A stretch of DNA of 64,000 nucleotides, from assembly GCA_035402825.1 (NCBI GenBank), contig DAONDZ010000001.1, forward strand, positions 44,839 to 108,838. The letters run 5' to 3'. Position 1 is the first letter of the stretch. Every line of letters begins with the position of its first letter. Positions 4,650-61,754 of this stretch are shown here, piece by piece. The stretch comes from a bacterium. GTDB lineage: Bacteria > Patescibacteriota > Patescibacteriia > Patescibacteriales > UBA12465. A model generated the notes under the pieces. It saw nothing but the letters and a program-made list of their open reading frames with translations. It searched no databases and was not told the origin of the DNA. A program made the position numbers and the translations under genes.

Positions 4650-5978
4650 TTACTCTTCCTCTCTTTTTTGGTCAATCCCCCAAACTGCACCGGAAAAAAT
4701 TATTCCCAGAAGCAGCCAGCCGAAATGAAGGCTGAATAACCAATGATCCAACATGGTTAAAACTATCAATCCCGACAGAAAAGCAGCTAGCTCCGGTTGA
4801 TTATAGGGCAGATATTTAAGAAACAAAAAGAAAATTAAAACCAAAGAAATGAGCAAACCGACGATACCGGTTTCCACTAGAATTAGCAGCCAGACATTAT
4901 GAACCGGCTGATAGAAATAGGCCGGCTCTTGAGGCGCTATCCTAACCAGACTATTGGTATAATTTCCCAGCCCCACCCCTAAGAGCCAATTATCCTTCAC
5001 AATCTTCTGGGCTTGAGAATAGCCAGTGAGCCGCTCGCTCTGAGAAATAACTGACAAACGATTCTCATTATCCAAGCGCGCCGACCACAAAGGATATAGA
5101 CTCAAACTTAAAAATATTAAAAACAAGCAGACTGTTCCCAGCACCCAAGATCTTTCCTGAGATTGGCGCCGGCTGCTATAAGGATCGGCTAAGAACCAAT
5201 AAACAAAAATGGACAGCAAGGCGGCCAGAATGGCGGCGCGAGAAAAAGATAAGATTAAAGCCGACGTAATCAAGATAAAATAAAGCCCGAACAATACCAA
5301 GAATAATCGCGGACGAGCTTGATACCAATCGCAATTTTTGCGGCGGCGGAAATAAATGACCGCGGATAAAAGAACTAGGACCAAAAATCCTCCCAGGATA
5401 TTAGGATGGCCAAAAGGGCCATAGGCTCGCAATTGGCGCTCAACTCCTAAATTAGAATTATATTCTACCACTGAAACCCCCAAAACTTCGGGGCGTTGCT
5501 CAGCCAACCCTAAATATTTATTGCTGCCAGCATAATTATTAACAAATTGGCTGATGCCTAGAATAGCCGGCAAAATAGCGGAGAGCAAAAACATCCGCCA
5601 AGCCATCCGCTTGCTAATCGCCGGACAAGCAGAAATAAGATAAGCGATAAATAAAGCGGCTAGTAGCCAAAAGATCCGACTCAAGCTTAAAGTCAAATCA
5701 ATCCCAGCTAAAGTCAAAGCCGCCGCCGCGATGGTGAAAATAATCACCAACAGCCAAGCGCCGCGCAATCTGATTTTCTCTCGAGCTTTAATGGCCCGGA
5801 TTAAACTCAGGCCGGCCAACAACAAGATGAGCAAATCCACGGCATAAAGACTGTAGGTGGTATATTCGCAATAACCACCGTTAATTTCTCCCGGACGCAA
5901 GAAATAACGAGTCTGCCAAGGCAAGAAAAAAATCAAAAGATAACTCAAGCGGCTAATGAGCCGATCTAAGATTTTCAT
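4650..5978 (-). CDS. O-antigen ligase/polymerase-like (Wzy_C-type) polytopic membrane protein
   Basis: 442 aa, about 10 or more hydrophobic segments. Central loop with FSRAAILAALLS-type segment typical of the O-antigen ligase family. Confidence 0.6.
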   Translation of the reverse strand: MKILDRLISRLSYLLIFFLPWQTRYFLRPGEINGGYCEYTTYSLYAVDLLILLLAGLSLIRAIKAREKIRLRGAWLLVIIFTIAAAALTLAGIDLTLSLSRIFWLLAALFIAYLISACPAISKRMAWRMFLLSAILPAILGISQFVNNYAGSNKYLGLAEQRPEVLGVSVVEYNSNLGVERQLRAYGPFGHPNILGGFLVLVLLSAVIYFRRRKNCDWYQARPRLFLVLFGLYFILITSALILSFSRAAILAALLSIFVYWFLADPYSSRRQSQERSWVLGTVCLFLIFLSLSLYPLWSARLDNENRLSVISQSERLTGYSQAQKIVKDNWLLGVGLGNYTNSLVRIAPQEPAYFYQPVHNVWLLILVETGIVGLLISLVLIFFLFLKYLPYNQPELAAFLSGLIVLTMLDHWLFSLHFGWLLLGIIFSGAVWGIDQKREEE

Positions 5979-7972: not shown

Positions 7973-8113
7973 ACTGCAATAGATTATACTTAAATTATAG
8001 TATAAAAATGGAAGGAAGTATAGTTGACAGCCCCCGGGGTTAGTGTCCTCACCCCACCAAAAGACCGCTCTAAAAAGCGGCCTTATTTTCACTGCAACCT
8101 ATTAAAATATTAA

Positions 8114-9136
8114 TTAATCATGCAGACAACGAACCGACTGGCCAAAACCGGAATAACTCGGTTCAATTCGGATTGTAGAGTCGCTGCTGCCAATGTTTCT
8201 GTCATACGGAAACGAACCATATTGTAAAGAAGAGGTCCAATAATAAGCTTGGGTGTTTTGGTAGGAAAAATAAGAAGCGATAAAATACCACATGCCGGGA
8301 AAAAGCGAATTAAAACCGGAAGATCCTCCTAATTTTAACTTGGCACCTTCATCAGTGCCTCTAATCGCGGTCGGCTGAGTATCGCCATAGGGAAAATCGG
8401 TGACACAAGTGGCTGAAGTGCAAACCGCTCTTTCTAAGGTAGTCCACTCATCGTTAGTCGGGATATGCCAGTTATCCGGACAAATACCTTGAGCCCCGGC
8501 AGTAGTGCTGTATTGCATAGCCTCATTCCAAATATATAATCCGCCGCGAGCTGTGCAATTGGCATCCAAATCGTCAAAACAATATTTTTCCACTATACCG
8601 TTATTGGCTTGACCGGCGGTGCCATTAATTCGGACGCCGACATTTAAATTCTCCGCCATCCAACATTGCGTACCAATTTGAACCACGTCATAAGTATGGC
8701 CATCAACGGTCGGGGCTAAAAGCGCCTGGCAGCAATCGCCGGCGGAAGTGCCGCCGCTATGACCGCAGGTTTTGCCGGCGGGCAAACTAGAAACTTGGCC
8801 GCCTAAACAAAAATTCAAATAATAATTAGCTCCGGCATCAGCCTGAGTATATTGATAAGCATTGCTGGCGGCGGTACAGCTGCCGTCCGGGGTAGTCGGG
8901 GCGGTGGGAATATTGGCCAGATAAGTAGTTGTAGCGCCGGAAGAAGTAGAATAAATAGAACCAGAAGCCCATTCGGCGTCGCTGGGATAACGGCCCATAT
9001 CATTAAAAAATAATTCCAAGGCGGTGGAAATCTGTTTGATATCAGCCACCCGCTTAGTATCTCTAGCTTTGGCGCGAGCGGTATTTAAAGCAATAACGGA
9101 AATAGAAGCCAAGAGCCCGATAATGGCAATCACCAC
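8114..9136 (-). CDS. type IV pilin-like protein fused to a FISUMP (Fibrobacter succinogenes major paralogous, TIGR02145-type) domain; 5' end unresolved
   Basis: The N-terminus continues upstream in frame as ...IKSKKAFTLVELLVVIAIIGLLASI (prepilin helix). The C-terminus has CWMAENLN, GGLYIWNEA, CPDNWHIPTNDEW, SSGFNSL, YYWTSS and SVRCLHD. The GTG start of the ORF track lies inside the pilin helix. Confidence 0.8.
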   Translation of the reverse strand: MVIAIIGLLASISVIALNTARAKARDTKRVADIKQISTALELFFNDMGRYPSDAEWASGSIYSTSSGATTTYLANIPTAPTTPDGSCTAASNAYQYTQADAGANYYLNFCLGGQVSSLPAGKTCGHSGGTSAGDCCQALLAPTVDGHTYDVVQIGTQCWMAENLNVGVRINGTAGQANNGIVEKYCFDDLDANCTARGGLYIWNEAMQYSTTAGAQGICPDNWHIPTNDEWTTLERAVCTSATCVTDFPYGDTQPTAIRGTDEGAKLKLGGSSGFNSLFPGMWYFIASYFSYQNTQAYYWTSSLQYGSFPYDRNIGSSDSTIRIEPSYSGFGQSVRCLHD

Positions 9137-9275
9137 TAATAGTTCTACTAGGGTGAAGGCTTTTTTTGATTTTATAAAAATAAACTCATTAATTATTAAT
9201 TTAATTATAGCTTATTTCGCTAAAAGCAACAAAAAACCAAGGTGTTAAGCTAGCTCTTTGATGACGGTACTCTTT
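9042..9275. repeat. left arm of perfect 234-bp inverted repeat
   Basis: By manual block-wise reverse complementing, this is the exact reverse complement of 9947-10180. Position p pairs with 19222-p. Confidence 0.9.
9204..9232 (-). promoter_or_regulatory. sigma70-like promoter inside left IR arm (TTGTTG-17-TATAAT)
   Basis: Mirror image of 9990-10018. The TATAAT box lies about 15 nt upstream of the out-of-frame ATG. Confidence 0.45.
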
Positions 9276-9436
9276 GGTTCGTTAAAAAATAAGGTTTTAT
9301 TGGGTTAATTATCAAGTTAATCTTTCGCCAGCTAACGGGGCCATTCGACAAAATGATCAAAGGAAAAAGCCCAAATTATAATATAAATTATTATAGCTCT
9401 AAATCTATCTCCGATTCCGAAAAAATTGGAATTTGA

Positions 9437-9790
9437 GACTTCATTTTAGTAGAACAAGGCCGAGCCGAAGCATGTGGAGGATTATCATATTCTTTAATTG
9501 AGCGGTGTTCAATCAGTGTCGGAATTGGCATTGAACAAGTCCCAGCTCTTTACCGCCTTGGTAGCAGAATCTATTTAGGTAATAACGAAAGTGCTTCCGT
9601 AACTTGTTTTGAAAAAGGCGATGACAAAAATAACTGGCGACATAAAAATATTCTCAAATACAATCTAAAAAACTTTGAATTAGATCTCCTGCCTTGGAGA
9701 TGCCACCCAACAAATCTTTATTTTGGTTATAAGCCTAATAAGATAATGACCGTCTGGATTAATCCGGGCCGTTATTTGGTATTCGGTTAA
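9437..9790 (+). other. 117-codon stop-free frame without canonical start codon in the IR core (gene remnant or non-canonical-start gene)
   Basis: Hand translation after TGA 9434-9436: DFILVEQGRAEACGGLSYSLIERCS...KIMTVWINPGRYLVFG, ending in TAA at 9788-9790. There is no ATG/GTG/TTG until near the 3' end. Confidence 0.3.
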
Positions 9791-9946
9791 GACCAGATTG
9801 TAGCTGGCCTAGGTTTCAAACTTAATTAATAAACCGATTGTCTCACTAAAAATTTTGCGCCAGAATAGCAGCTAAAATATAAACGGCGAGAAAGCCTTTT
9901 GGATAAAAGATTTTTTTATTCCCCCAAATTTATAACTAAACTCCAA

Positions 9947-10180
9947 AAAGAGTACCGTCATCAAAGAGCTAGCTTAACACCTTGGTTTTTTGTTGCTTTT
10001 AGCGAAATAAGCTATAATTAAATTAATAATTAATGAGTTTATTTTTATAAAATCAAAAAAAGCCTTCACCCTAGTAGAACTATTAGTGGTGATTGCCATT
10101 ATCGGGCTCTTGGCTTCTATTTCCGTTATTGCTTTAAATACCGCTCGCGCCAAAGCTAGAGATACTAAGCGGGTGGCTGA
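9947..10180. repeat. right arm of perfect 234-bp inverted repeat
   Basis: See left arm. Covers 139 nt upstream of the GTG at 10086 plus the first 95 nt of the ORF-track pilin CDS. Confidence 0.9.
9990..10018 (+). promoter_or_regulatory. sigma70-like promoter inside right IR arm (TTGTTG-17-TATAAT)
   Basis: -35 at 9990-9995, 17-nt spacer, TATAAT at 10013-10018. Confidence 0.45.
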
Positions 10181-11168
10181 CGTTAAACAAATTTCTACAG
10201 CCCTGGAATTATATTTTAACGACGCAGGAAGATATCCGACTGCCGCCGAATTTACTACAGGATCCCTTTATTCTACCTCGACCAACGGAACAACTACCTA
10301 TATGGCCACCGTCCCCCTGGCACCCGACCCGCCGGACGGCAATTGCAGCCAGGCAAATAATAATTATAATTACGTGGAAACGGAAAATGGCGCTGGCTAC
10401 CAGCTTGTTTTCTGTCTAGGAGGAAGAACCGGCAGTCTGAATAGTAATTGCGTTCAGGCCAGCCCGACCGGAATGGTCAACACCAATTCCAATCCCTTAT
10501 GTATCGTCGGCTTAAAATTATGGCTCGATGCCGCTGATACCAGTACCTTGTTTTCGGACGGGGATTGTTCGATCCCGGCGGCCGCCGACGGACTGGTCGG
10601 TTGCTGGCACGACAAAAGCGGCAATAACAATGATGCTCGACAGGTTTCTGGCCCCAGTCAAGCGGTCAGGAAAGACGGCGTCCAAAATGGCAAGACGGCT
10701 TTGCGCTTCGATGGAACGAATGATTTTTATTCACATAACAATATCACCGACGAACGCACTATCTTTTTCGTCATCAAGCATGCAGACGGAGACCAAGTAT
10801 ATCTCGGATATGACTATGATGCACCCCTCGGACACAGCGTCAGCTTTAATTGGAGCGGCGGAAACGCTTTTCCGGGCAGCACTTTCTTGAGTCCATTCGC
10901 ATCTCCTTATATCCTGAACGGTGCCGCTTATGACGATGCCGCAACGACGAATGCGATTTCTATTCCCAAGCCCTACCCCAATTTTCACATTTATTCCTTT
11001 GTCACGACCGACAATGTCGAAAGCGAATATATAGCCAATGACCGAAATACACCGAGTTATTATTGGGAGGGCGATATCGCCGAATTAATTATTTATAATG
11101 TGCCTTTAACCGATGCCGACCGTCTGAGCATCCAGAATTATCTGAACGACAAATACCATATCTATTAA
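10086..11168 (+). CDS. type IV pilin-like protein fused to a LamG/concanavalin-A-like lectin domain; 5' end unresolved
   Basis: Same N-terminal helix as 8114-9136. The C-terminus has LKLWLDAADTSTL, CWHDKSGNNNDA, NGKTALRFDGTNDF and GDIAELIIYNVPLTDADRLSIQNYLNDKY, typical of the LamG_3 family. Confidence 0.8.
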   Translation: MVIAIIGLLASISVIALNTARAKARDTKRVADVKQISTALELYFNDAGRYPTAAEFTTGSLYSTSTNGTTTYMATVPLAPDPPDGNCSQANNNYNYVETENGAGYQLVFCLGGRTGSLNSNCVQASPTGMVNTNSNPLCIVGLKLWLDAADTSTLFSDGDCSIPAAADGLVGCWHDKSGNNNDARQVSGPSQAVRKDGVQNGKTALRFDGTNDFYSHNNITDERTIFFVIKHADGDQVYLGYDYDAPLGHSVSFNWSGGNAFPGSTFLSPFASPYILNGAAYDDAATTNAISIPKPYPNFHIYSFVTTDNVESEYIANDRNTPSYYWEGDIAELIIYNVPLTDADRLSIQNYLNDKYHIY

Positions 11169-11225
11169 TCGACGCAGCTATTCGAAGAAGTCGATTGCAA
11201 TAAGCAAAGAACTTTCTATATAAAC

Positions 11226-11259
11226 AAAAAAACCTTGATATTATCTATCAAGGTTTTTG
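11226..11259. terminator. bidirectional rho-independent terminator (pilin gene / gyrA convergent)
   Basis: AACCTTGATA-ttatc-TATCAAGGTT perfect 10-bp stem flanked by A7 and T5. Confidence 0.75.
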
Positions 11260-11352
11260 TTATATCTCAGTAATCACGAAATACGGTCTATAAATTTATA
11301 GTTAAACTCCAAAAGGAGTTCGATTCATAAATATAACTACCTTATTATTAGT

Positions 11353-13908
11353 TTAGGCCCAAGTAACTCCGGCAACCTTATCACCGGCTTCCTTGAGACG
11401 CATTATTTTTACCCCTTGAGTATCGCGGCCTAATTCATTAACGGATTTAAATGACAGACGGATAACTTGGCCCTTTTCGGAAATAACAATTAAATCTTTA
11501 TCAATCATGGTATCGGCATTAACGATGAAAGCATTAACTATTCGGCCAGTCTTGTCGGTTACTTTAGCGGTTCTGATACCGCTGCCGCCGCGACCCTGTA
11601 ATTTATATAATTTCAAATCAGTTCGCTTGCCAAAACCATTGGACATCAAAGTCATTACTTGATAATTGCGTTTTTTATCCTTATCGGTCTTAATCACTCC
11701 CATGCCCACCACGATATCTTTGCCTTTCAAGCGCATGCCTTTGACTCCGGCGGCGCCGCGGCCCATATCGCGGACATCTTTTTCTTTGAATCGGATAGCC
11801 TGACCCAAAGCGGTAATTAATTGAATTTCATCATTACCGGAAGTCGGCTTAGCCCAAATCAATTTATCATCATCTTTAATCTTAATAGCAATCAAACCGC
11901 TGCGGCGGACATTATTAAAAGCGCCCAATTCCACTTTTTTAACCAAGCCTTTTTCGGTGGCGAAGAATAAATACTTAGCGTTGGTTATCTTATCTAAAGG
12001 CAAAGTGGAAGTCACTTTTTCTCCGCTTAGTAGCTGCAAAAAATTAACAATCGGCGTGCCCTTGGCAGTTCGAGAAGCTTGCGGCACTTCATGCGCCTTT
12101 AATTGGAAAGCTCGCCCTTTGGTGGTGAAGAAAAGCAAATCGCTATGAGTGAAAGTGGTGAACATGAATTCTACCGAATCCTCTTCTTTGGTCGTGAGAC
12201 CAATAACGCCCTTGCCGCCGCGAGCTTGAACTTTAAAAGTATCGGGATCAATTCTCTTAATGTAGCCGTCTCTGGTCATCATGACCATGGTTTCTTCATT
12301 AGGGATTAAATCCTCCACATTAAAATCTTTGACGCCATGAGCCACCACTTGAGTGCGGCGTTCATCGGCGAACTTATCGCGCAAACCTTGTAATTCATCT
12401 TTGATAATACCTCTGATACGGGAAACGGATTTCAAAATAGCTTCCAGCTCTTTAATTAATTTCATTTTTTCTTTCAACTCTTCTTCAATCTTCAAGCGCT
12501 CCAAGTTGGCCAAATTCTGCAATCTCATTTCCAAAATAGCCACGGCCTGTTTTTCTGATAATTTAAATTGCTTAATCAAATTAACTCTCGCCACGTCCTT
12601 ATCTTTAGAGGCTTTAATAGTTTTAATCACCGCGTCGATATTCTTCAAAGCAATCATTAATCCTTCTAAAATATGAGCCCGATCCTTGGCCTTGTTCAAT
12701 TCAAATTGAGTGCGGCGACGAACCACCACTTCTCGATGCTTGATATATTCCTCCAAAATCATCTTCAAAGTCAGAACCTTAGGCTGGATACCATCTACCA
12801 AGGCCAGCATGTTCACATGGAAAGCTGTCTGCAAAGCGGTATGTTTATACAAACTGTTTAAAATCTTTTTAGGATAGGCATCTTTCTTTAAATCCATAAC
12901 GACGCGCACGCCCTCTTTGTCTGATTCGTCACGCAAACTCTTGATACCTTCCAGTTTTTTGTCTTTAACCAATTCCGCAATCTTCTCCACCAGAGTCGCT
13001 TTGTTGACTTGGTAAGGAATTTCGGAAATTATAATTTGAAAATCACCGTGCTTATTTTCGCGGATATCGGCTCGGCCGCGCATCACGATGCCGCCTTTAC
13101 CGGTGGCATAAGCGGTTAAAATATCTTTTTGATCATAGATAATGCCGCCGGTCGGAAAATCAGGGCCTTTAACAAATTGCATTAAGTCCTCCACGGTAGC
13201 TTCTGGATGATCAATTAAATGATTAATAGCATCAATTAGTTCTCCCAAGTTATGCGGCGGGATTTCAGTGGCCATACCCACGGCAATACCCATGGTACCG
13301 TTAAGCAATAAGTTCGGCAGTTTAGCCGGTAAAACTCGCGGTTCTTGGTGCGACCCATCATAGTTAGGAATAAAATCAACCGTATCCTTATCAATATCAA
13401 ACATCATCTCTTCGCTGATGCTGGCTAATTTAGCTTCAGTATAACGCATGGCCGCAGCCCGATCGCCGTCCATAGAACCGAAGTTACCCTGGCCTTTAAC
13501 CAGCGGATAGCGCATAGAAAAATCCTGAGCCATTCTAACCATGGAATCATAGACAGCACTATCGCCATGCGGATGATATTTACCTAACACTTCGCCGACG
13601 ACGGTAGCTGATTTTCTAAACTTAGCGTTAGCCCGCAAACCGATGCTCCACATTGCATACAAAATGCGACGATGAACCGGCTTCATACCATCCCGAACAT
13701 CCGGCAAAGCGCGAGAAACGATAACGCTCATAGCGTAATCCAAATAAGAGCGGCGCATTTCCTCCACTATCGGCTGTTCTTGAACCGTACCAAATTCAGT
13801 TTCATGGCGGACGATTAAATCAGCCGCCGGTACTTCCTTGGCAGTTTCTTTCTTCTTATTATCTTTTTCCGGCGTTGCTTTAGCCGGCTTAATTATTTTT
13901 CTGGCCAT
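11353..13908 (-). CDS. gyrA: DNA gyrase subunit A
   Basis: 851 aa. [35 protein letters not shown] (catalytic Tyr region) and C-terminal beta-pinwheel repeats. Confidence 0.97.
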
Positions 13909-39400: not shown

Positions 39401-39491
39401 CCGTCTCCTTCGCCAATAACTTCCCCTGCGGCGAATCATCGCCGCCGGTCTTTTGGCTTAAAAGAGCGTTGATGGAATCAAATCCACTCAT
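36471..39491 (-). CDS. pilB: type IV pilus/T2SS assembly ATPase (PilB/GspE family), tandem-duplicated: two complete ATPase modules in one chain
   Basis: 1006 aa. Two Walker A (TTGPTGSGKTTTLYAILNKL, NTGPTGSGKTTTLYSILREL), two Walker B/Asp boxes (IMVGEIRD, MMIGEIRD), two His boxes (TGHLVLSTLHTN, TGHLVLSTIHAN), two tetracysteine motifs. Confidence 0.9.
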   Translation of the reverse strand: MSGFDSINALLSQKTGGDDSPQGKLLAKETELKSKKQEEQTEAQAAASGLGYINLFGFPISPEAIGLISEEEARANKIVCFYYDGENIRLGLVGAVTPSSRAIIDHLNNQYFTNSRLYLISELSFNYALELYKILPKIKKYESGVEIKPEDLKRFEAAISSYKNLNEEINKVNISDVVTLMLATALKVGASDIHIEAEAQGIVVRLRIDGVLQEAAVIDKLKWKKIISRMKILAGVKINIEDKPQDGRYSIYLDNEIADVRSSFLPTAYGESVVMRLLKSQSVGLPFEELGLRPESFQLLKVAMEKPNGLILTTGPTGSGKTTTLYAILNKLNQPGTKIITLEDPIEYQLKGISQSQVDPKKGYTFAEGLRSILRQDPNVIMVGEIRDVETAEIAVQASLTGHLVLSTLHTNDASGVIPRLVDMGVKPFFLTPAVNAVLGQRLVRQLCPKCKQAHVLNSEEEEQVKKILAVVSPKAGINIPSTLPAIYKVGPGCEFCNGIGYKGRIGIYEVFTMDDKIKQLTNDGAPAFKILQQAIENGMVTMLQDGVLKVLDGTTSLEEVYRVAGDFDYVNELYDIVISQTMGRGIKISLPELEQAQGLLKQPQELSQILAQMPTKQLLHLVSALAVKEDAGDIHIEPAEGAVKIRFRIDGVLHDIITLPFDHYLPLLSEVKILSGFATNVKQATMDGRFVIIMPDKKIDCRVSIISGGYGETVVVRLLTGAGANLSLDALGIAPYTLPVIKEAMKKTRGIIINTGPTGSGKTTTLYSILRELNKPDVKIITVEDPIEYRLEGLIQTQIDNAAGYTFAMAMRSLLRQNPNIMMIGEIRDEETAKIAIEASLTGHLVLSTIHANSAAGAISRFVGLGVDRQQLANAIECAIGQRLARRLCPHCKTEAFLDENTKTEVKKIISQITNPLAQIPLPWKTYKAVGCEQCGFLGYKGRLGLYEAVGMNADIQKAIQNINLTDMEVETLAVQAGMITMMQDGLVKALNGETTVEEVFRVCA

Positions 39492-43533: not shown

Positions 43534-44928
43534 ATGGAATTAACTCTAATGGACAAATTAGTTTCCCTGGCCAAGCGCCGCGGCTTTATCTTTCCTTCTT
43601 CCGACATCTATGGCGGTTTTGCCGCTGTCTATGACTACGGCCACTACGGCACTTTGCTCAAAAATAATATCCGTGATTCCTGGATCAAATCCATGATTCA
43701 AGAACATGACGACATTGTCCTCATGGATGGAGCTATTTTCATGAGTCCCAAAACCTGGGAGGCCTCCGGACACCTCGCTAATTTTGACGACCCGCAAGTT
43801 GATTGCAAAAAATGCAAGAATCGCATGCGCGCCGATCACCTTCTGGAAACAATTCTCGGAGAAGATCTTTTTGACAAAGCAGGCTTGAAAGATATTAATG
43901 CTAAATTAGATGAGCTAAGGGCAGCCAAGAAATTAAAATGCTTAGAATGCGGCTCCACCGATCTGACCGCCGCTAAACGTTTTTCCTTGATGGTTAAATC
44001 AAATTTGGGCTCCCCCACCGAAGAATTGAGCGACGACAATGTCGTCTATCTCCGCCCAGAAACTTGCGGCAGCATCTATTTGCAATACAAAAATATTCTA
44101 GACTCCACTCACCCGAAGCTGCCTTTCGGTATTGCCCAAGTCGGCAAAGCTTTCCGCAATGAGATTGTAGCGCGCCAATTCATTTTCCGTACTCGAGAAT
44201 TTGAACAAATGGAGCTCCAGTATTTCCTGCCGGAAAAAATGGCTATGGAAAAATATGACGAATGGAAAGCGGCTCGCTTTGATTGGTATGTAAAAAACGG
44301 CATCGACCAAAATGATATCCGCTGGTATAAACACGAAAAATTGGCCCACTATGCTAAAGCGGCCTATGATATTGAATATAACTACAAATCCCTGGGAGGG
44401 TTCAAAGAAGTAGAAGGCATTCACGCTCGAGGCGATTGGGACCTCACTCAACACAGCAAATTTTCCGGAGTGGACTTAAGCTATTTTGACGAAGCTGAAA
44501 AGACTCGTTATATGCCGCACATAGTGGAAACATCTGTGGGCTTGGGCCGCTTGGTGCTGATGTTTTTAGATAAAGCCTATACCGAAGAAGCGATTAACGA
44601 TGAAACTAGAATAGTCATGAAGTTCCCCTATGCTTTAAGCCCGATCAAGGCCGCCATTTTCCCGTTGCTTAAAAACAAACCGGATTTAGTGGCTAAGGCC
44701 AAAGAAATATATGAAACTTTGCGTGGTTCATTCATGTGCGAATTTGATGACAGCGGCAACATCGGTAAGCGCTATCGCCGCCAAGATGAAATTGGCACGC
44801 CCTTTTGTCTCACTGTTGATTTTGACAGTTTAGAAAATAATGATGTCACCGTGCGCGACAGAGACACCATGAAACAGGAGAGGATAAAAATAGCGGACTT
44901 AAAAGAATATATAATCTCTCGCCTTTAA
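43534..44928 (+). CDS. glyQS: glycine--tRNA ligase (alpha2 type)
   Basis: FPSSDIYGG, RPETCGSIYL, FRNEIVARQFIFRTREFEQMELQYF, GIGKRYRRQDEIGTPF. Confidence 0.92.
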   Translation: MELTLMDKLVSLAKRRGFIFPSSDIYGGFAAVYDYGHYGTLLKNNIRDSWIKSMIQEHDDIVLMDGAIFMSPKTWEASGHLANFDDPQVDCKKCKNRMRADHLLETILGEDLFDKAGLKDINAKLDELRAAKKLKCLECGSTDLTAAKRFSLMVKSNLGSPTEELSDDNVVYLRPETCGSIYLQYKNILDSTHPKLPFGIAQVGKAFRNEIVARQFIFRTREFEQMELQYFLPEKMAMEKYDEWKAARFDWYVKNGIDQNDIRWYKHEKLAHYAKAAYDIEYNYKSLGGFKEVEGIHARGDWDLTQHSKFSGVDLSYFDEAEKTRYMPHIVETSVGLGRLVLMFLDKAYTEEAINDETRIVMKFPYALSPIKAAIFPLLKNKPDLVAKAKEIYETLRGSFMCEFDDSGNIGKRYRRQDEIGTPFCLTVDFDSLENNDVTVRDRDTMKQERIKIADLKEYIISRL

Positions 44929-55142: not shown

Positions 55143-55502
55143 TTATCGTTTTCTCTCCTCATGCAGAACTATTTTCTTAACGATAAAATAAAGCACCACC
55201 AGTACGATGAGCAGGGTCAACAAAGTGCTAACTATGCCGCCGATATTAAATCTGATTCCCCGGACATAAAAATCTAAATCGCTGAAATTTTCCGCAGAAA
55301 ATATTACCTGGATCAAAGGAATAAAAAATCCTTTGACTAAAGCGTCCACAAAGTCTTTACCGGCTTGAGCGACAATGACGCCGATAGCCACTCCGAGTAC
55401 GGCATATTCCTTAATGAACTCGGAAATCTTGCCGAAGAGAGAGGAGATGGGTCTGGTATGTTTTATTTTTTCTATTCTACCTAACATATTATTTGGCATC
55501 AT
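55143..55502 (-). CDS. mscL: large-conductance mechanosensitive channel MscL
   Basis: [36 protein letters not shown] plus a second TM. The start is ambiguous (ATG at 55502, 55499 or 55487) and abuts the recA stop. Confidence 0.82.
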
Positions 55503-56538
55503 CAATCTTCTCTTGGGCCACCCCCTTTAAGACTGCCTCACGAATTTGAGCGATAATCTTCGGGTTGTCTTTCAAGAATTGTTTAGCGTTCTCACGGCCA
55601 GTGCCCAATTTAATATCGTTATAGGTATAGGTATTGCCGGATTTTTTAATCGCCCCGTAATTTACACCGCAATCTAAGACATCGCCAGCAGTAGAGATAC
55701 CTTCGTTATACATGATATCAAACTCAGCTACTTTAAACGGAGCAGCCACTTTATTCTTCACGATCTTAGCTCTAACCTGGTTGCCTAATATCTTGTCGCC
55801 TTGCTTGATCTGAGCGGTGCGGCGCACTTCGACGCGCACTGAACAATAAAACTTCAAAGCATTGCCGCCAGTAGTAGTTTCCGGACTGCCGAAGAAAACA
55901 CCAATTTTGTTTCTAATTTGGTTAATGAAGATAACAATGGTCTTGCTTTTGGAAACGATACCGGTCAATTTGCGCAAAGCTTGGCTCATCAATCTAGCCT
56001 GCAAGCCCATGTGCTGATCGCCCATATCACCCTCAATTTCTTTCTGCGGTACCAAAGCAGCCACGCTGTCTACAACGATAACATCCACGGCGTTAGAACG
56101 TACCAAGGTTTCTACAATGTCCAAAGCTTGTTCGCCGGTATCAGGCTGAGAGATTAACATCTCTTTGATATTAACACCTATTTTCTGGGCATAATCAGGG
56201 TCTAAAGCATGTTCAGCGTCTACAAAAGCGGCGATACCGCCCAACTTTTGAACTTCAGCCACAATGTGCTGGGCTAAGGTAGTTTTGCCGGATGATTCCG
56301 GACCAAAAATCTCAATAATTCGGCCTCGCGGTACACCGCCGATGCCGAAAGCGATATCTAAAGATAAGCAGCCGGTGGAGACAGCGTCAACATCAGTTTT
56401 GCGGACATCGCCAAATTTCATGATGGCTCCCTCGCCGAACTTGTCCTTAATCTGATTAATAGCGGTTAAAGCCGCTTCATCGCGGCCGGAATGATCGGCT
56501 TTCTTCTCAGCTTCGCTCTTAGGTTTTTCTTTGCTCAT
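55489..56538 (-). CDS. recA: recombinase RecA
   Basis: [48 protein letters not shown]. Confidence 0.97.
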
Positions 56539-56662: not shown

Positions 56663-59347
56663 CTACTGGGCGCAATTGCCATCTTCATCCAAAATCGCTC
56701 CCGGAGTACCATTGCAGCAAGATGGGTTAATTTGGGTAGCCAGACAAGTAGCGCTGGCGCTAGGCTTGAAACAATTCTGATAAATATCACGGACCGCGCT
56801 GCCGGCCTGGGAATTATAATCCACTGCTTCGGCCAGCATCACATGGTTCAGCCTGACTTTAGTATAATCCATTTCTCCGTCCTGAGGTGAATTATCAATA
56901 TTGTCGCCGGTAATCCAATAGCCTGGAGCCGGACCGGTCTTGGTGAAAAGATTGAAGAAATGATGATCAACAGTACTGGTGCCAATCTTAATAGTTTCGG
57001 AACCGCTGCGCAACGAGCTATTCATGAGCAAGGAATTAAAATCAACTACCACCGGATCAACTAAGTTATTGCTATTGCCATTAACCGCCGGGGTGATATC
57101 AGTGATTTTAGGCGGGTCAGTCGCTACTTGGTTGTTAATATAGAATGACCAGCGATAGTTATCCTTATAAGCCGCATTGCCGGCATTTTCATCATAGAAA
57201 TATCGCAGACCGCCCACTACTATCGGACCATCGGCATAAGTATCGCGGTTACCATCCAGGGAATTCATAGCTGCGTCCATAATACCAGAGGTGGTCGGGC
57301 TGGCAGCGATAGAATAATTGTGTCCGTTATTATCTTGGCAAGTCTTATGACCCAAGGAAGCATTATTAGCACAAGTGCTATAAGGAGCGACACAATCGGT
57401 ATCAGTACTACAAGTCTTTAAATCGGCCGCCATGATTTCAACCTTAATCTGAGAGCTGGCCGGCAAGCAATATATTTTTTCTCCGCAACCGTTCATGCCG
57501 CATTCTCGATTAGACTTGAACTCTACAGTTTTATAGCCATTAGCGATACTGAATTTTCCATCCAAATAATCACCAACACATTTATTGCTTTCACACTTAA
57601 ATGACAAACAAGCATTGTCGCTATTGCAAGTGGCGCCATTAGCCAAAGAACCGGCGCGAGCATTAACCACCCGCAAGCCATCTTTCAGCTGATCAGCGGT
57701 TCCAGAAACGGCAATGGGATTAAGGGCTTCGTTGAAATTAATTTGAATGACTGAGTTCATCGGTTTATCCGGTTTGTCGTTGACAGTAAAAGTAACTTGC
57801 TGATTAGCGCCGCCGGATAAAGGAATTACCTCAAAAGTTTGGTTGTTGTTAGTTAAAACCTCAATGCTATTGCCAGATTCTCCAGCCGCTTTAGCTCGCA
57901 AATTGACTCGAGTTGGAGACGCATCGGTAATAGTCGGCTCAACGTCGTTTCGACCGCTTAAGATGTCCTGAATTCGACTCGCTTGTTGTGGCAAACCACT
58001 AATACTTTGAATATTAACACTAGATGAGGCATTCACAAAAGTATAAACATCGCCGGAAATAGTAATTGTATCAGCGGTCTTTTCTGGAGAAACCGTGACA
58101 GTCCAAGAATTCCCCGGATCCCGGTCGTCCTCGCTGGCTAGTGTCAAAGAGAAATAGCCGGCGAAATTAACCGTCTTGCCGGAAAAATCGGCCAGACCTA
58201 AAGAACTACCTCCGGAGTATAATTGAGCTCTGGTGGCGCCTCCCTGGCCCACTAGAGTGACGGTAAAAATGGTATTCTGGCCTTGATAGCCGGCATCGGC
58301 TACGGCCGTGGCGTTCTGGTAACTGCCGCCGCCATTCTTGGCCACGGAAACGATACTGGCCGGAGCATAAACTTGCGGCTGTTGCTTTACTCGAATTGAT
58401 CCGGAAGCAAAAGCCCAATTGCTGCTAGTGGCCGCTTGGTCGCGATTATTATCCGGAGCCGGAAAGATGCCGCCGCTTCTCACTTGAGGCGGAGTTAAAT
58501 CTAATAAGCTATTAACCTCAAACTGCCAGCGGAAATAATCAGTAGAGCAGGTATCAAATAATTGTCGGCCATCAGCCTTTCTTAAATCGTTAGTTAAAGA
58601 AACAGTATACCAAGTATTAGCGGAAGCTGAGCCTAAAGGCGTAGTCGGGACAAAAACCAAAGTCATATCATTAGGAGTCATCACTTTCAAATCCGTAACG
58701 CTATTTTCAGCTCCGGCATCGGTAGGATAAACTTTTATTCTTTCCGAATTAGGTTTATTACAGGTATTAGTATTGCAAATACACTCGCCGCCGTTATCAT
58801 CAACGCAGACCGAACTCAAGTCTAATGATTCTTTAAAGGTAACGATAATTGAAGTATTGCGAGCTACATCTTTCTGATCAATTTCCGGATAAACACTATC
58901 TATCACGCAAGAACCAATAGCGCCAAATCCTAAAGCACCACCATTCTTGCCGCCATTATTTAATTCATTACCGGTTCCACCGGTAGTACCCAGAAGACGA
59001 CTGAAAATAAAAGTAACTATCCCCCAAGCTGATAAAATTATCGCTAAGCCGATTAAAGCATTGCGTAAAGTCTTTTTGGCTATCGCTATCTGCTCTTCAT
59101 TGCCGCCCGAAGTCATCCATTTAAAGCCGGCAAACAAAATAAGACCTACGGCAATCGTCCCCAAAAATATCATGAAGATATTAATGATCCGAGCCGCTAT
59201 CCGCAAAGGGCTTTCGGAGCCCAATTGGATGGCGCTATTAATTTCATTAGTGCCGACATCGACTGCTGCTCCGGCTTGAATTGCCGAAATTGCTAAAAGC
59301 AAGGCCACGCCCCCGATGATGTAGAAAAGACGTGATTTTTTTATCAT
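56663..59347 (-). CDS. large surface protein: TrbC/VirB2-like pilin-type N-terminal membrane module fused to about 770 aa of Cys-rich/Ig-like extracellular region
   Basis: N-terminus ...IFMIFLGTIAVGLILFAGFKWMTSGGNEEQIAIAKKTLRNALIGLAIILSAWGIVTFIF matches the GFxWMTAxGNEExxxKAKxxLxxAxIGLxIIL pattern of small pilin-like proteins common in Patescibacteria. SbsA-Ig-like segments follow (NTSIIVTFKESLDLSSV, SVIQINFNEALNPIAV). Confidence 0.7.
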   Translation of the reverse strand: MIKKSRLFYIIGGVALLLAISAIQAGAAVDVGTNEINSAIQLGSESPLRIAARIINIFMIFLGTIAVGLILFAGFKWMTSGGNEEQIAIAKKTLRNALIGLAIILSAWGIVTFIFSRLLGTTGGTGNELNNGGKNGGALGFGAIGSCVIDSVYPEIDQKDVARNTSIIVTFKESLDLSSVCVDDNGGECICNTNTCNKPNSERIKVYPTDAGAENSVTDLKVMTPNDMTLVFVPTTPLGSASANTWYTVSLTNDLRKADGRQLFDTCSTDYFRWQFEVNSLLDLTPPQVRSGGIFPAPDNNRDQAATSSNWAFASGSIRVKQQPQVYAPASIVSVAKNGGGSYQNATAVADAGYQGQNTIFTVTLVGQGGATRAQLYSGGSSLGLADFSGKTVNFAGYFSLTLASEDDRDPGNSWTVTVSPEKTADTITISGDVYTFVNASSSVNIQSISGLPQQASRIQDILSGRNDVEPTITDASPTRVNLRAKAAGESGNSIEVLTNNNQTFEVIPLSGGANQQVTFTVNDKPDKPMNSVIQINFNEALNPIAVSGTADQLKDGLRVVNARAGSLANGATCNSDNACLSFKCESNKCVGDYLDGKFSIANGYKTVEFKSNRECGMNGCGEKIYCLPASSQIKVEIMAADLKTCSTDTDCVAPYSTCANNASLGHKTCQDNNGHNYSIAASPTTSGIMDAAMNSLDGNRDTYADGPIVVGGLRYFYDENAGNAAYKDNYRWSFYINNQVATDPPKITDITPAVNGNSNNLVDPVVVDFNSLLMNSSLRSGSETIKIGTSTVDHHFFNLFTKTGPAPGYWITGDNIDNSPQDGEMDYTKVRLNHVMLAEAVDYNSQAGSAVRDIYQNCFKPSASATCLATQINPSCCNGTPGAILDEDGNCAQ

Positions 59348-60716: not shown

Positions 60717-61754
60717 CTAGAGAGTAGCTAATTGCTCTAATTGTCCCTCAGCCGTCTCTTGATCAATCAAATTTTGTTCATAGAGTTCGCGAATGTGGCG
60801 GCTCATGGTAATCATGCCTTCGCTATAACCGGTTTCAATGACATTCTTAATCTGCTGGATCTTTTGCTCCCGAATTAAGTTGGCAATAGCCGCGTTGCGG
60901 ATCATAATTTCTCTGGCCACAATTCGGCCGCCGCCCACTTTAGGCAATAACTTCTGAGAAATAACCGCTGATAACACGGTAGTCAACTGAGAACGAATTT
61001 GAGCCTGTTGATAAGGAGGGAAAACATCAATAATTCTATCAATAGTCTGAGCGGCATTAAAAGTATGCAAAGTGGCTAACACCAAATGTCCGGTTTCAGC
61101 TAAAGTAATGGCCGCGGCAATAGTTTCCAAGTCGCGCAACTCACCGACCATAATTACATTCGGGTCTTGGCGCACCACATGCTTCAAGCCGGCCGAAAAA
61201 GAAGTCAAATCAAAACCGAGCTGGCGCTGAGTGATAATACTTTTGTTGGAGGTAAATAGATATTCAATCGGGTCCTCAAAGGTAATGATATTATGAGCGA
61301 AATTATCATTCAAATAATTAATCATAGCCGCCAAGGTAGTTGATTTTCCGGACCCGGTCGGACCGGTAACCAATATCAATCCTTGTTGATGGCCCAATAG
61401 TTTGTAAATCACTTTAGGGATACCGATTTCATCTAAAGACGGCGGCTGCTGTCTCACTACGCGGGCCACCATGCGATAATGGTCTCTTTCAAAAGAAAAA
61501 TTAACGCGGAACCGCGTGTTGTTTACCGAATAACCCAAGTCTAAATCTTTTTCCTGATCCAATCTGGTTCTTTGATCGGCATTTAACATGGTCTTTACCA
61601 CATTCATCAGAGCCTCATCATTAATCACCTCAAAATTATCTAAACTGATTAATTTTCCGTCTACCCTAATTAATGGTTTCAGATTACAAACCACATGTAA
61701 ATCTGAAGCCCAGCGATCCGCGGCTACTTGTAATAAATCATTGATATTTACCAT
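60717..61754 (-). CDS. pilT: type IV pilus retraction ATPase PilT
   Basis: 345 aa. ASDLHV, VTGPTGSGKSTTLAAMINYLN, IMVGELRDLETI, TGHLVLATLHT. Confidence 0.9.
   Translation of the reverse strand: MVNINDLLQVAADRWASDLHVVCNLKPLIRVDGKLISLDNFEVINDEALMNVVKTMLNADQRTRLDQEKDLDLGYSVNNTRFRVNFSFERDHYRMVARVVRQQPPSLDEIGIPKVIYKLLGHQQGLILVTGPTGSGKSTTLAAMINYLNDNFAHNIITFEDPIEYLFTSNKSIITQRQLGFDLTSFSAGLKHVVRQDPNVIMVGELRDLETIAAAITLAETGHLVLATLHTFNAAQTIDRIIDVFPPYQQAQIRSQLTTVLSAVISQKLLPKVGGGRIVAREIMIRNAAIANLIREQKIQQIKNVIETGYSEGMITMSRHIRELYEQNLIDQETAEGQLEQLATL

Follow-up and report, generated by a model that had tools for sequence, protein, structure and literature searches.

An identical 5′ unit in two divergent modular pilin genes of a Falkowbacteria-like bacterium probably reflects recent copying between paralogues

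Two modular type IV pilin genes stand head-to-head in a 64,000-nucleotide (64-kb) stretch of DNA, positions 44,839 to 108,838 of contig DAONDZ010000001.1 (assembly GCA_035402825.1), which we refer to as the window; it comes from a Falkowbacteria-like member of the candidate phyla radiation (CPR). The 5′ ends of these genes lie in the two arms of a perfect 234-bp inverted repeat, on either side of a 671-bp spacer. Our analysis suggests that the repeat is probably the result of recent homologous copying of a 5′ unit between the sister pilin genes, and that it is a footprint of concerted evolution, not a switch.

A perfect inverted repeat exceeds the identity of related pilin genes

Direct comparison of the two arms showed that positions 9042–9275 equal the reverse complement of 9947–10180 at 234/234 positions, exactly as a first-pass annotation of this DNA had claimed; no other exact inverted repeat of at least 25 nt was found within the window. 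Outward of the arms, identity decays to 32/41, then to 70/100 and then to 127/192. The annotation had seen this drop, which stands, with a hand count of 31/41 in place of 32/41. A repeat search with mismatches allowed returned arms of 426 nt at 85% identity. Each arm includes 134 nt of pilin coding sequence when counted from the ancestral start, or 116 nt from the phenylalanine at position +1, rather than the ~95 nt estimated earlier.

To place this identity in context, it can be compared with that between other members of the pilin family. A paralogue in the same genome (P0024) differs from the coding part of the arm at 30/134 positions, corresponding to ~78% identity. Over the next 135 nt, there are 41 mismatches between the two genes of the locus, 44 between the right-hand (LamG-like) gene and P0024, and 28 between the left-hand (FISUMP) gene and P0024; identity just outside the arms (adjacent 135–192 nt) is 66–70%. 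Tandem pilin genes on a contig of another species (L095) are 71–75% identical over their first 300 nt. By our own arithmetic, the chance of 134 perfectly matching nucleotides at the paralogue baseline is 0.78^134, or ~3e-15. The arms thus form an identity tract with an abrupt excess over the paralogue baseline, the pattern by which gene conversion is recognised. A perfect tract of 234 nt, including 100 nt of upstream DNA, set against such a diverged baseline calls for an inverted duplication or a non-reciprocal exchange of recent date. Of the two options raised in the first-pass annotation, conversion of the pilin 5′ module is therefore supported, with a perfect 234-nt tract amid paralogue identities of 67–78%.

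A further similarity touches the right arm. A 28-nt direct repeat straddles the inner edge of this arm and recurs, with 25/28 matches, at 11292–11319, between a bidirectional terminator (11228–11258) and the gyrA stop codon (11353). These two copies are the only matches in the window, 0 being expected in shuffled sequences, and they bracket the right arm, the LamG-like pilin gene and the terminator; weaker similarity continues ~45 nt deeper into the right arm. The direct repeat may be the scar of an event that placed or duplicated the cassette beside gyrA. An Rfam search of the locus and of the whole window gave no match in the arms or the spacer.

The repeat is present in assemblies of several samples

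Searching for exact copies of GyrA and RmuC, encoded next to the locus, retrieved the same strain from ~10 assemblies of different origin (JGI 3300010352, 3300009692, 3300009694 and 3300025867; GCA_964476145.1; GCA_035353275.1; ERZ795026; ERZ27257423; SRR4236661). At least six independent metagenome assemblies break at the repeat or span it as expected for a true repeat. The two spanning contigs that were read (L001/L009 and L002/L010) are 100% identical to the window over 3.4–5.4 kb and carry the spacer in the same orientation. The remaining flank contigs break off inside an arm after 141, 123, 127 or 30 nt, all four distances occurring in the left arm, or they reach precisely to the inner edge; two of them (L004 and L005) terminate exactly at 9947 and another (L003) at 10058. 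The distances of 141, 123, 127 and 30 nt fit assembler k-mer sizes, of which k = 141 is explicit in the contig name k141_512189, while 123, 127 and 31 were taken from common assembler settings.

The spacer was also recovered alone in two assemblies, as a contig of 671 nt corresponding exactly to 9276–9946 (L099) and as a contig of 917 nt (L098; 9153–10069), which consists of the 671-nt spacer plus 2 × 123 nt of arm. In 3300009692, a flank contig reaches 123 nt into the arm from outside and a core contig reaches 123 nt from inside, implying that there is no copy-specific k-mer anywhere in the 234 nt. Coverage in ERZ795026 is equal for the spacer (5.64×) and its flank (5.99×). Together, the breaks at arm edges, the core-only contigs and the equal coverage in several assemblies mean that the perfect repeat exists in the reads of several samples.

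The inverted repeat is not an assembly chimera, an explanation for which the first-pass annotation had asked the assembly graph to be checked. Near-identical repeats can collapse in short-read metagenome assembly, and most assemblies leave this locus unresolved, as would be seen if a palindromic join had been introduced or if perfect identity had been made by a chimera or by the collapse of slightly different copies. However, both the outer boundary (9042/10180) and the inner boundary (9275/9947) are reproduced by different assemblers and in different samples, the sources being MEGAHIT-named k141 contigs, SPAdes-style NODE contigs, Logan and JGI assemblies. With one sample free of any copy-specific k-mer across the 234 nt, and with core coverage matching that of the flank, an artefact is hardly conceivable. 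A scan of JGI metagenome contigs with the inner 30-mer of the arm gave 0 exact matches, in a collection that does not hold this organism.

Both genes encode modular type IV pilins

Both genes encode FTLVELLVVIAIIG, which comprises a class III signal motif, a hydrophobic α-1 helix and Glu5 (PF07963, E ~5e-7; TIGR02532, E ~8e-7), and the profile of the pilin family also matches solved pilin structures. The residue at position −1 is alanine in both, instead of glycine, as it is in 98/117 relatives. Each protein joins a pilin module to a recognisable non-pilin C-terminal domain, as expected of modular pilins, which are a described class (PMC8179133, PMC9934059). The FISUMP pilin matches PF07963 (N_methyl) at E = 4.6e-7, PF09603 at E = 6.9e-28 and TIGR02145 at E = 6.5e-30, and has 857 homologues at E ≤ 1e-20, the best non-self match being 54% identical.

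The LamG-like pilin matches N_methyl at E = 5e-7, and its own match to PF13385 (Laminin_G_3) reaches only E = 0.052. PF13385 was found in 5/16 of its full-length homologues, which are 35–45% identical to it, and the family profile matches the lectin module of S. sanguinis PilC (7oa7/7oa8) at E = 2e-4. The right-hand gene can thus be called LamG-like mainly through its relatives. The unrelated C-terminal domains described by the annotation hold up strongly on the FISUMP side, and on the LamG side they find support through homologues. The LamG-like pilin retains 36/39 family-invariant positions. Among 5.8 billion proteins, no orthologue of the FISUMP pilin above 54% identity, or of the LamG-like pilin above 45%, was found.

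Both proteins belong to a very large CPR pilin family, in which a conserved N-module of ~140 residues is combined with varied tips (FISUMP, LamG, Lcl_C and others), and at least five further FISUMP pilins are encoded in the same genome. The fusion of a pilin module to a C-terminal functional module is shared with S. sanguinis PilB and PilC, and the profile match suggests that the likeness between PilC and the LamG-like family may extend to the lectin module. Unlike PilB and PilC, the pilins described here come from a CPR lineage, have alanine in place of glycine at −1, and form a large multigene family whose tips include FISUMP, LamG and Lcl_C. The locus is a further instance of the big families of modular, lectin-tipped pilins seen in CPR bacteria.

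The shared 5′ unit lacks a canonical start codon

No in-frame ATG, GTG or TTG precedes the FTLVELL motif in either gene; the leader that had been listed in each arm therefore does not begin with an ordinary start. The in-frame codons read ATA AAA TCA AAA AAA GCC TTC, encoding I-K-S-K-K-A-F. Where the paralogue P0024 has ATT TTT ATG AAA, the arms have ATT TTT ATA AAA. Of 120 relatives listed, 117 carry the pilin motif, all with a called leader; these leaders are commonly 6–7 residues long, end in alanine in 98 cases, and include the recurring MKSKKA, to be compared with IKSKKA in the window. All relatives examined that carry the motif have an ATG start where the arms read ATA, which indicates that an ancestral ATG start has become ATA in both arms.

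Just upstream, an out-of-frame ATG at 10033 opens a five-codon upstream open reading frame (uORF) whose TAA overlaps the ATA, and the same arrangement is mirrored at 9172–9189 (−). Gene callers start the FISUMP pilin at an internal GTG at 9136 (340 amino acids, aa) and the LamG-like pilin at a GTG at 10086 (360 aa). By falling back on these internal codons they produce truncated proteins (P0001 and P0152) that have lost the pilin motif, and the practical lesson is that such truncation strips the pilin signature from both genes.

In the absence of a canonical start, both pilins may be weakly translated from ATA/ATT, or they may be freshly silenced. Since the LamG-like pilin keeps 36 of its 39 invariant residues, any silencing would be recent. 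A programmed −1 frameshift from ATG 10033 at UUU-UUA-UAA, or slippage on the T-run, would be a low-probability route to a translation start. Of all details of the locus, only the non-canonical start codon common to both genes would merit an experiment.

The spacer contains a dead β-barrel gene

A pseudogene on the plus strand fills ~82% of the 671-bp spacer. It is interrupted by three in-frame stops (TAA 9290, TGA 9434 and TAA 9788), its MKK start is now VKK, and conserved tryptophan residues have been replaced. A phmmer search with the stop-free 117 codons at 9437–9787 (+) gave 27 matches at E ≤ 1e-3 among 1.84 billion proteins, the best of those not from this same locus at 6.7e-21 and 42% identity. 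The conceptual translation of 9278–9832 is colinear with the family from signal peptide to C-terminus, across the stops. At 9434, the TGA aligns with a tryptophan of the closest relative; TGA is an ordinary stop in this genome. The annotation had described the core as having no open reading frame (ORF) with a start codon, and indeed it has no long one, but the core is not featureless, because it carries the pseudogene.

The family gave no Pfam or PDB sequence match. Its AlphaFold model is a high-confidence 12-stranded barrel (predicted local distance difference test score 90.8), which Foldseek matches to the porins KdgM and NanC. The spacer gene was probably acquired horizontally from a diderm and is now decaying. 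To our knowledge, the CPR lineage is generally held to lack an outer membrane, and the structural model suggests that an outer-membrane-type protein is decaying in this one.

Three other readings of the core were discarded. A 145-aa protein that reads the TGA as tryptophan (P0121) was considered as an intact allele, but the contigs that encode it match the window without a difference, TGA included, so that it is a code-4 gene call. The peptide DFILVEQ in the core was considered as the degenerate start of a third pilin, but in the alignment it matches a conserved FxLVE strand from the interior of the β-barrel family. The core was also compared, as a possible remnant, with a 248-aa membrane-protein gene found on a contig of a sibling species (L015), to which it has no similarity. 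P0121 derives from the core-only contigs L098/L099 and is now present in protein databases as a spurious protein, a practical lesson in how a dead spacer gene can be called with the wrong genetic code in public data.

A putative family promoter lies inside each arm

The promoter-like site TTGTTG-17-TATAAT proposed by the first-pass annotation was found once in each arm. The pilin genes of the other species on L095 have TTTTTTGATT-17-TATGAT placed 26 nt before the ATG (gene at 5510, by count), and the arm has TTTTTTGTTG-17-TATAAT placed 28 nt before the ATA, with the 17-nt stretches between the two elements similar in sequence. Arms and L095 thus share an architecture in which a T-run merges into TTGATT (L095) or TTGTTG (arm), followed by 17 nt and TATRAT, giving the pattern TTTTTTGxTx-17-TATRAT. 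This conservation indicates that the putative promoter of the family sits inside each arm.

No serine or tyrosine recombinase and no Piv-type invertase was found among ~45 ORFs of the window (Pfam) or in the precomputed annotation of the neighbourhood. recA, correctly reported by the annotation, is the sole gene found in the window whose recombination function could act on the arms. Because both promoters and both 5′ coding ends lie in identical arms, and the spacer holds a pseudogene, a flip of the spacer would have no predicted phenotype. The inversion switch, the other option raised in the annotation, is consequently not supported: each arm has a promoter, the core is mostly a dead gene, no invertase was found, and the two spanning contigs read show one orientation.

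Discussion

Our observations suggest the following course of events. Two paralogous modular pilin genes stand head-to-head in the variable gyrA–rmuC gap of this Falkowbacteria-like CPR genome, each, like its relatives, with its own family promoter, a short leader without a Shine–Dalgarno sequence, a six-residue prepilin leader peptide and an α-1 helix. A recent homologous but non-reciprocal event would have copied 234 bp of the 5′ unit from one pilin gene onto the other, either by gene conversion or, equivalently, by an inverted duplication of which one end fell within the N-domain that the pilins share. On its outer side the tract ends within homologous coding sequence, where identity steps from 100% to ~78% and then ~66%, and on its inner side it ends where the shared sequence stops. 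The copied unit would have carried both the ATG-to-ATA change and the out-of-frame upstream ATG, leaving both genes without a canonical start. Between the arms, the spacer is what remains of a β-barrel gene of the outer-membrane type, unrelated to the pilins and probably gained by horizontal transfer, and a RecA-mediated crossover between the arms could flip this spacer with no predicted change in phenotype. The right arm may be in its original context, as the similarity of the 28-nt direct repeat runs on across its inner edge, and the left arm would then be the copy. If this ordinary explanation holds, the locus would show neatly, in a natural setting, how gene conversion can carry a 5′ regulatory and coding unit from one surface-protein paralogue to another, along with a start-codon defect.

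Several points weigh against this account. The proposed direction of transfer depends solely on the similarity that crosses the inner edge of the right arm, which makes it tentative. A single event and recurrent homogenisation look inseparable at this locus, the best non-self matches of the two pilins being 54% and 45%. Neither pilin ORF shows other damage, as would be expected had silencing lasted long. The core contains a promoter-like site, TTTAGA-17-TATAAT, running from 9403 to 9375 with 10/12 matches and facing the FISUMP gene. Finally, the evidence on orientation consists of assembled contigs, from which alone neither the absence nor the frequency of spacer flipping can be shown, and short-read assemblers that must choose an orientation over a repeat of 234 bp may not do so independently.

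These points bear on several rival explanations. Both pilins could be young pseudogenes, next to an older one, silenced by the shared ATG-to-ATA change, in which case the repeat would have no present function. The ATA at the family start position in both genes, with an out-of-frame ATG before it, fits such a decaying locus, as do the clearly dead gene next door, the loss of 3/39 family-invariant residues by the LamG-like pilin (0–2 for most relatives) and the presence of at least five other FISUMP pilins in the genome. On the other hand, the two ORFs run unbroken for 353 and 373 codons, the state does not vary between samples, and initiation at ATA/ATT, or reinitiation after the five-codon uORF whose TAA overlaps the ATA, could still serve the two genes. 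We regard decay as a serious possibility, though one that falls short of being probable. Selection could also act through recurrent concerted evolution, frequent conversion keeping the two 5′ units identical for equal regulation, processing and incorporation of the pilins. This would account for 0 differences over 234 nt, for the identical state in at least six assemblies, and for a tract that covers exactly the regulatory and assembly-relevant unit; yet the recovered strains are all 100% identical over the locus and give no sign of repeated events, homogenisation is not seen among the tandem paralogues of relatives or the other paralogues of this genome (71–78%), and a tract that carries the loss of a start codon is hard to view as selected. 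Recurrent conversion under selection therefore appears unlikely to us, and recent copying between the sister genes still seems the better explanation.

A RecA-dependent flip of the kind known from the sap locus of Campylobacter fetus would require that the sole effective promoter lie in the 671-bp core, for example at 9403 to 9375, and that inversion alternate the display of the two adhesin tips. As at sap, the cassettes are opposed, the conserved region runs from upstream DNA into the ORF, and recA is present; moreover, the best match to a consensus promoter in the region lies inside the core and points outward, and a mixed population would also leave the locus unresolved in many assemblies. 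These features have to be set against a conserved family promoter within each arm and a core that is otherwise a dead gene. The core promoter-like site itself falls where the pseudogene retains an Asn/Tyr/Ile-rich coding remnant, and DNA this rich in AT contains about as many sites of the kind as chance predicts (11 found, 8.2 expected). The spanning contigs L001/L009 and L002/L010 agree with the orientation of the window, and contig breaks at k-mer-like distances are expected of any 234-bp repeat. We consider a sap-like flip very improbable. A more novel reading would see in the arms an active RecA-driven module of an ultrasmall episymbiont, either a sap-like flip, with a spacer promoter serving whichever adhesin-tipped pilin it faces, or a pilin pair parked in the off state by the shared non-AUG start, whose two members may be switched on together by conversion or reversion; we would give this idea little credence. 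If either version were true, CPR pili would have their first described system of recombinational phase or antigenic variation.

Comparison with known systems helps to place the locus. At sap, the cassettes are promoterless, a unique promoter sits on the invertible segment, and inversion is RecA-dependent, without a dedicated invertase. Dworkin and Blaser reportedly described the single promoter on the invertible segment in 1996 (cited in PMC4902306). Like sap, the pilin locus has opposed surface-protein cassettes, a conserved 5′ region that begins upstream of the ORF and no dedicated invertase that we could find, and its 234-bp perfect arms together with recA match the sap arrangement of a long conserved 5′ region beside a recombination function. 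Unlike at sap, each arm holds a family promoter, so the cassettes are not promoterless, and the intervening segment is a pseudogene. Piv of Moraxella bovis and M. lacunata, Hin, Gin and FimBE represent another type, in which a site-specific recombinase gene lies beside short crossover sites, and coding segments or a promoter are swapped. Pilin genes associated with an inverted repeat are common to Moraxella and the window, but here no recombinase was found among the ~45 ORFs and there are no alternative coding segments. The segment-swapping analogy with Moraxella drawn in the annotation fails because the arms contain the promoters and N-termini, so that a crossover exchanges identical DNA.

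In the Neisseria pilE/pilS system, silent copies that lack promoters donate variable 3′ parts to a single expression locus by conversion. Both cases involve gene conversion among pilin paralogues, although in the present one the conserved 5′ part, including the promoter, would have been converted between two complete genes. RecA-dependent gene conversion between inverted paralogues is established for the tuf genes (PMC5485169). The tufA and tufB genes of Salmonella are likewise inverted paralogues, between which non-reciprocal transfer of the RecA type leaves identical tracts, a few hundred bp long, that end where homology ends (PMC5485169), and between which reciprocal exchange inverts the intervening DNA. 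Unlike tufA and tufB, which lie hundreds of kb apart, the pilin genes are 671 bp apart, and only their 5′ unit is homogenised, the remaining domains being unrelated. Among known systems, the locus fits best with a multigene family of pilins that undergoes concerted evolution through gene conversion.

Genomic context and other features of the window

Comparison of RmuC with its relatives assigns the organism to Falkowbacteria-like Patescibacteria. Relatives conserve the order ndk–gyrA–(0.2–1.9 kb)–rmuC–orf304–wzy without pilins, and the corresponding gap measures 3.4 kb here, which places the pilin pair and the pseudogene in a variable insertion gap. LamG-like and FISUMP pilin genes occur in tandem in relatives, not divergently, and no comparable inverted repeat was found in 80 GTDB loci anchored on RmuC. 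Only one of these 80 loci, from a sibling species with an 88% identical RmuC (L015), has a pilin at this site. On that contig (1–1100), from the closest relative, the 248-aa membrane-protein gene and a pilin gene with a normal ATG (MKKPQA followed by FTLVELL) replace the FISUMP pilin and the pseudogene; the contig ends inside the pilin 5′ end.

Table 1 Features of the pilin locus and of recA in the window.
Feature	Position	Strand	Description
FISUMP pilin gene	8114–9175	−	Modular type IV pilin, C-terminal FISUMP (Fib_succ_major) domain; 353 codons from ATA
Left arm, perfect inverted repeat	9042–9275	−	Promoter-like site 9204–9232 (−), uORF 9172–9189, ATA 9173–9175; encodes leader IKSKKA and first 39 residues of the mature FISUMP pilin
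Spacer (core)	9276–9946		671 bp, AT-rich, GC content 0.30–0.38
Pseudogene in spacer	9281–9829	+	Family of ~185–200-aa signal-peptide proteins, predicted 12-stranded outer-membrane-type β-barrel
28-nt direct repeat, copy A	9926–9953	+	Straddles inner edge of right arm; 25/28 matches to copy B
Right arm, perfect inverted repeat	9947–10180	+	Promoter-like site 9990–10018 (+), uORF from ATG 10033 to TAA 10050, ATA 10047–10049; encodes leader and N-terminal helix of the LamG-like pilin
LamG-like pilin gene	10047–11168	+	Modular type IV pilin, C-terminal LamG/concanavalin-like lectin module; 373 codons from ATA
28-nt direct repeat, copy B	11292–11319	+	Between bidirectional terminator 11228–11258 and gyrA stop 11353
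recA	55489–56538	−	PF00154, E = 1.5e-134

Pilus and secretion machinery is scattered through the window. T2SSE ATPase domains occur at 36471–39491 (−), in a 1006-aa protein with two T2SSE (PilB-like) ATPase stretches, and at 60717–61754 (−), in a PilT-like ATPase; an 894-aa protein with a T4SS_pilin domain is encoded at 56663–59347 (−). No prepilin peptidase was identified among the window ORFs scanned. A complete 16S rRNA gene lies at 18979–20458 (+), and since no 23S or 5S match was found elsewhere in the window, the rRNA genes appear to be unlinked.

Another contig of the same genome (L104; JGI 3300009692, Ga0116171_10000002) carries, at 8001–12566, tandem FISUMP pilin genes followed by bAvd and a reverse transcriptase. 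Comparison of the template repeat (11159–11336) with the 3′ end of the second pilin gene (10400–10577) on this contig places 16/16 mismatches at template adenines, which indicates a genuine diversity-generating retroelement (DGR) that targets the tip of the FISUMP pilin P0161. The FISUMP pilin of the window was considered as a remote target of this element and set aside, as it has no match to the template repeat. A large serine recombinase is encoded ~4 kb beyond the DGR on the same contig, outside the window. Because a DGR of the same genome targets another pilin, tip variation in this organism is better explained by paralogy together with DGR mutagenesis than by inversion.

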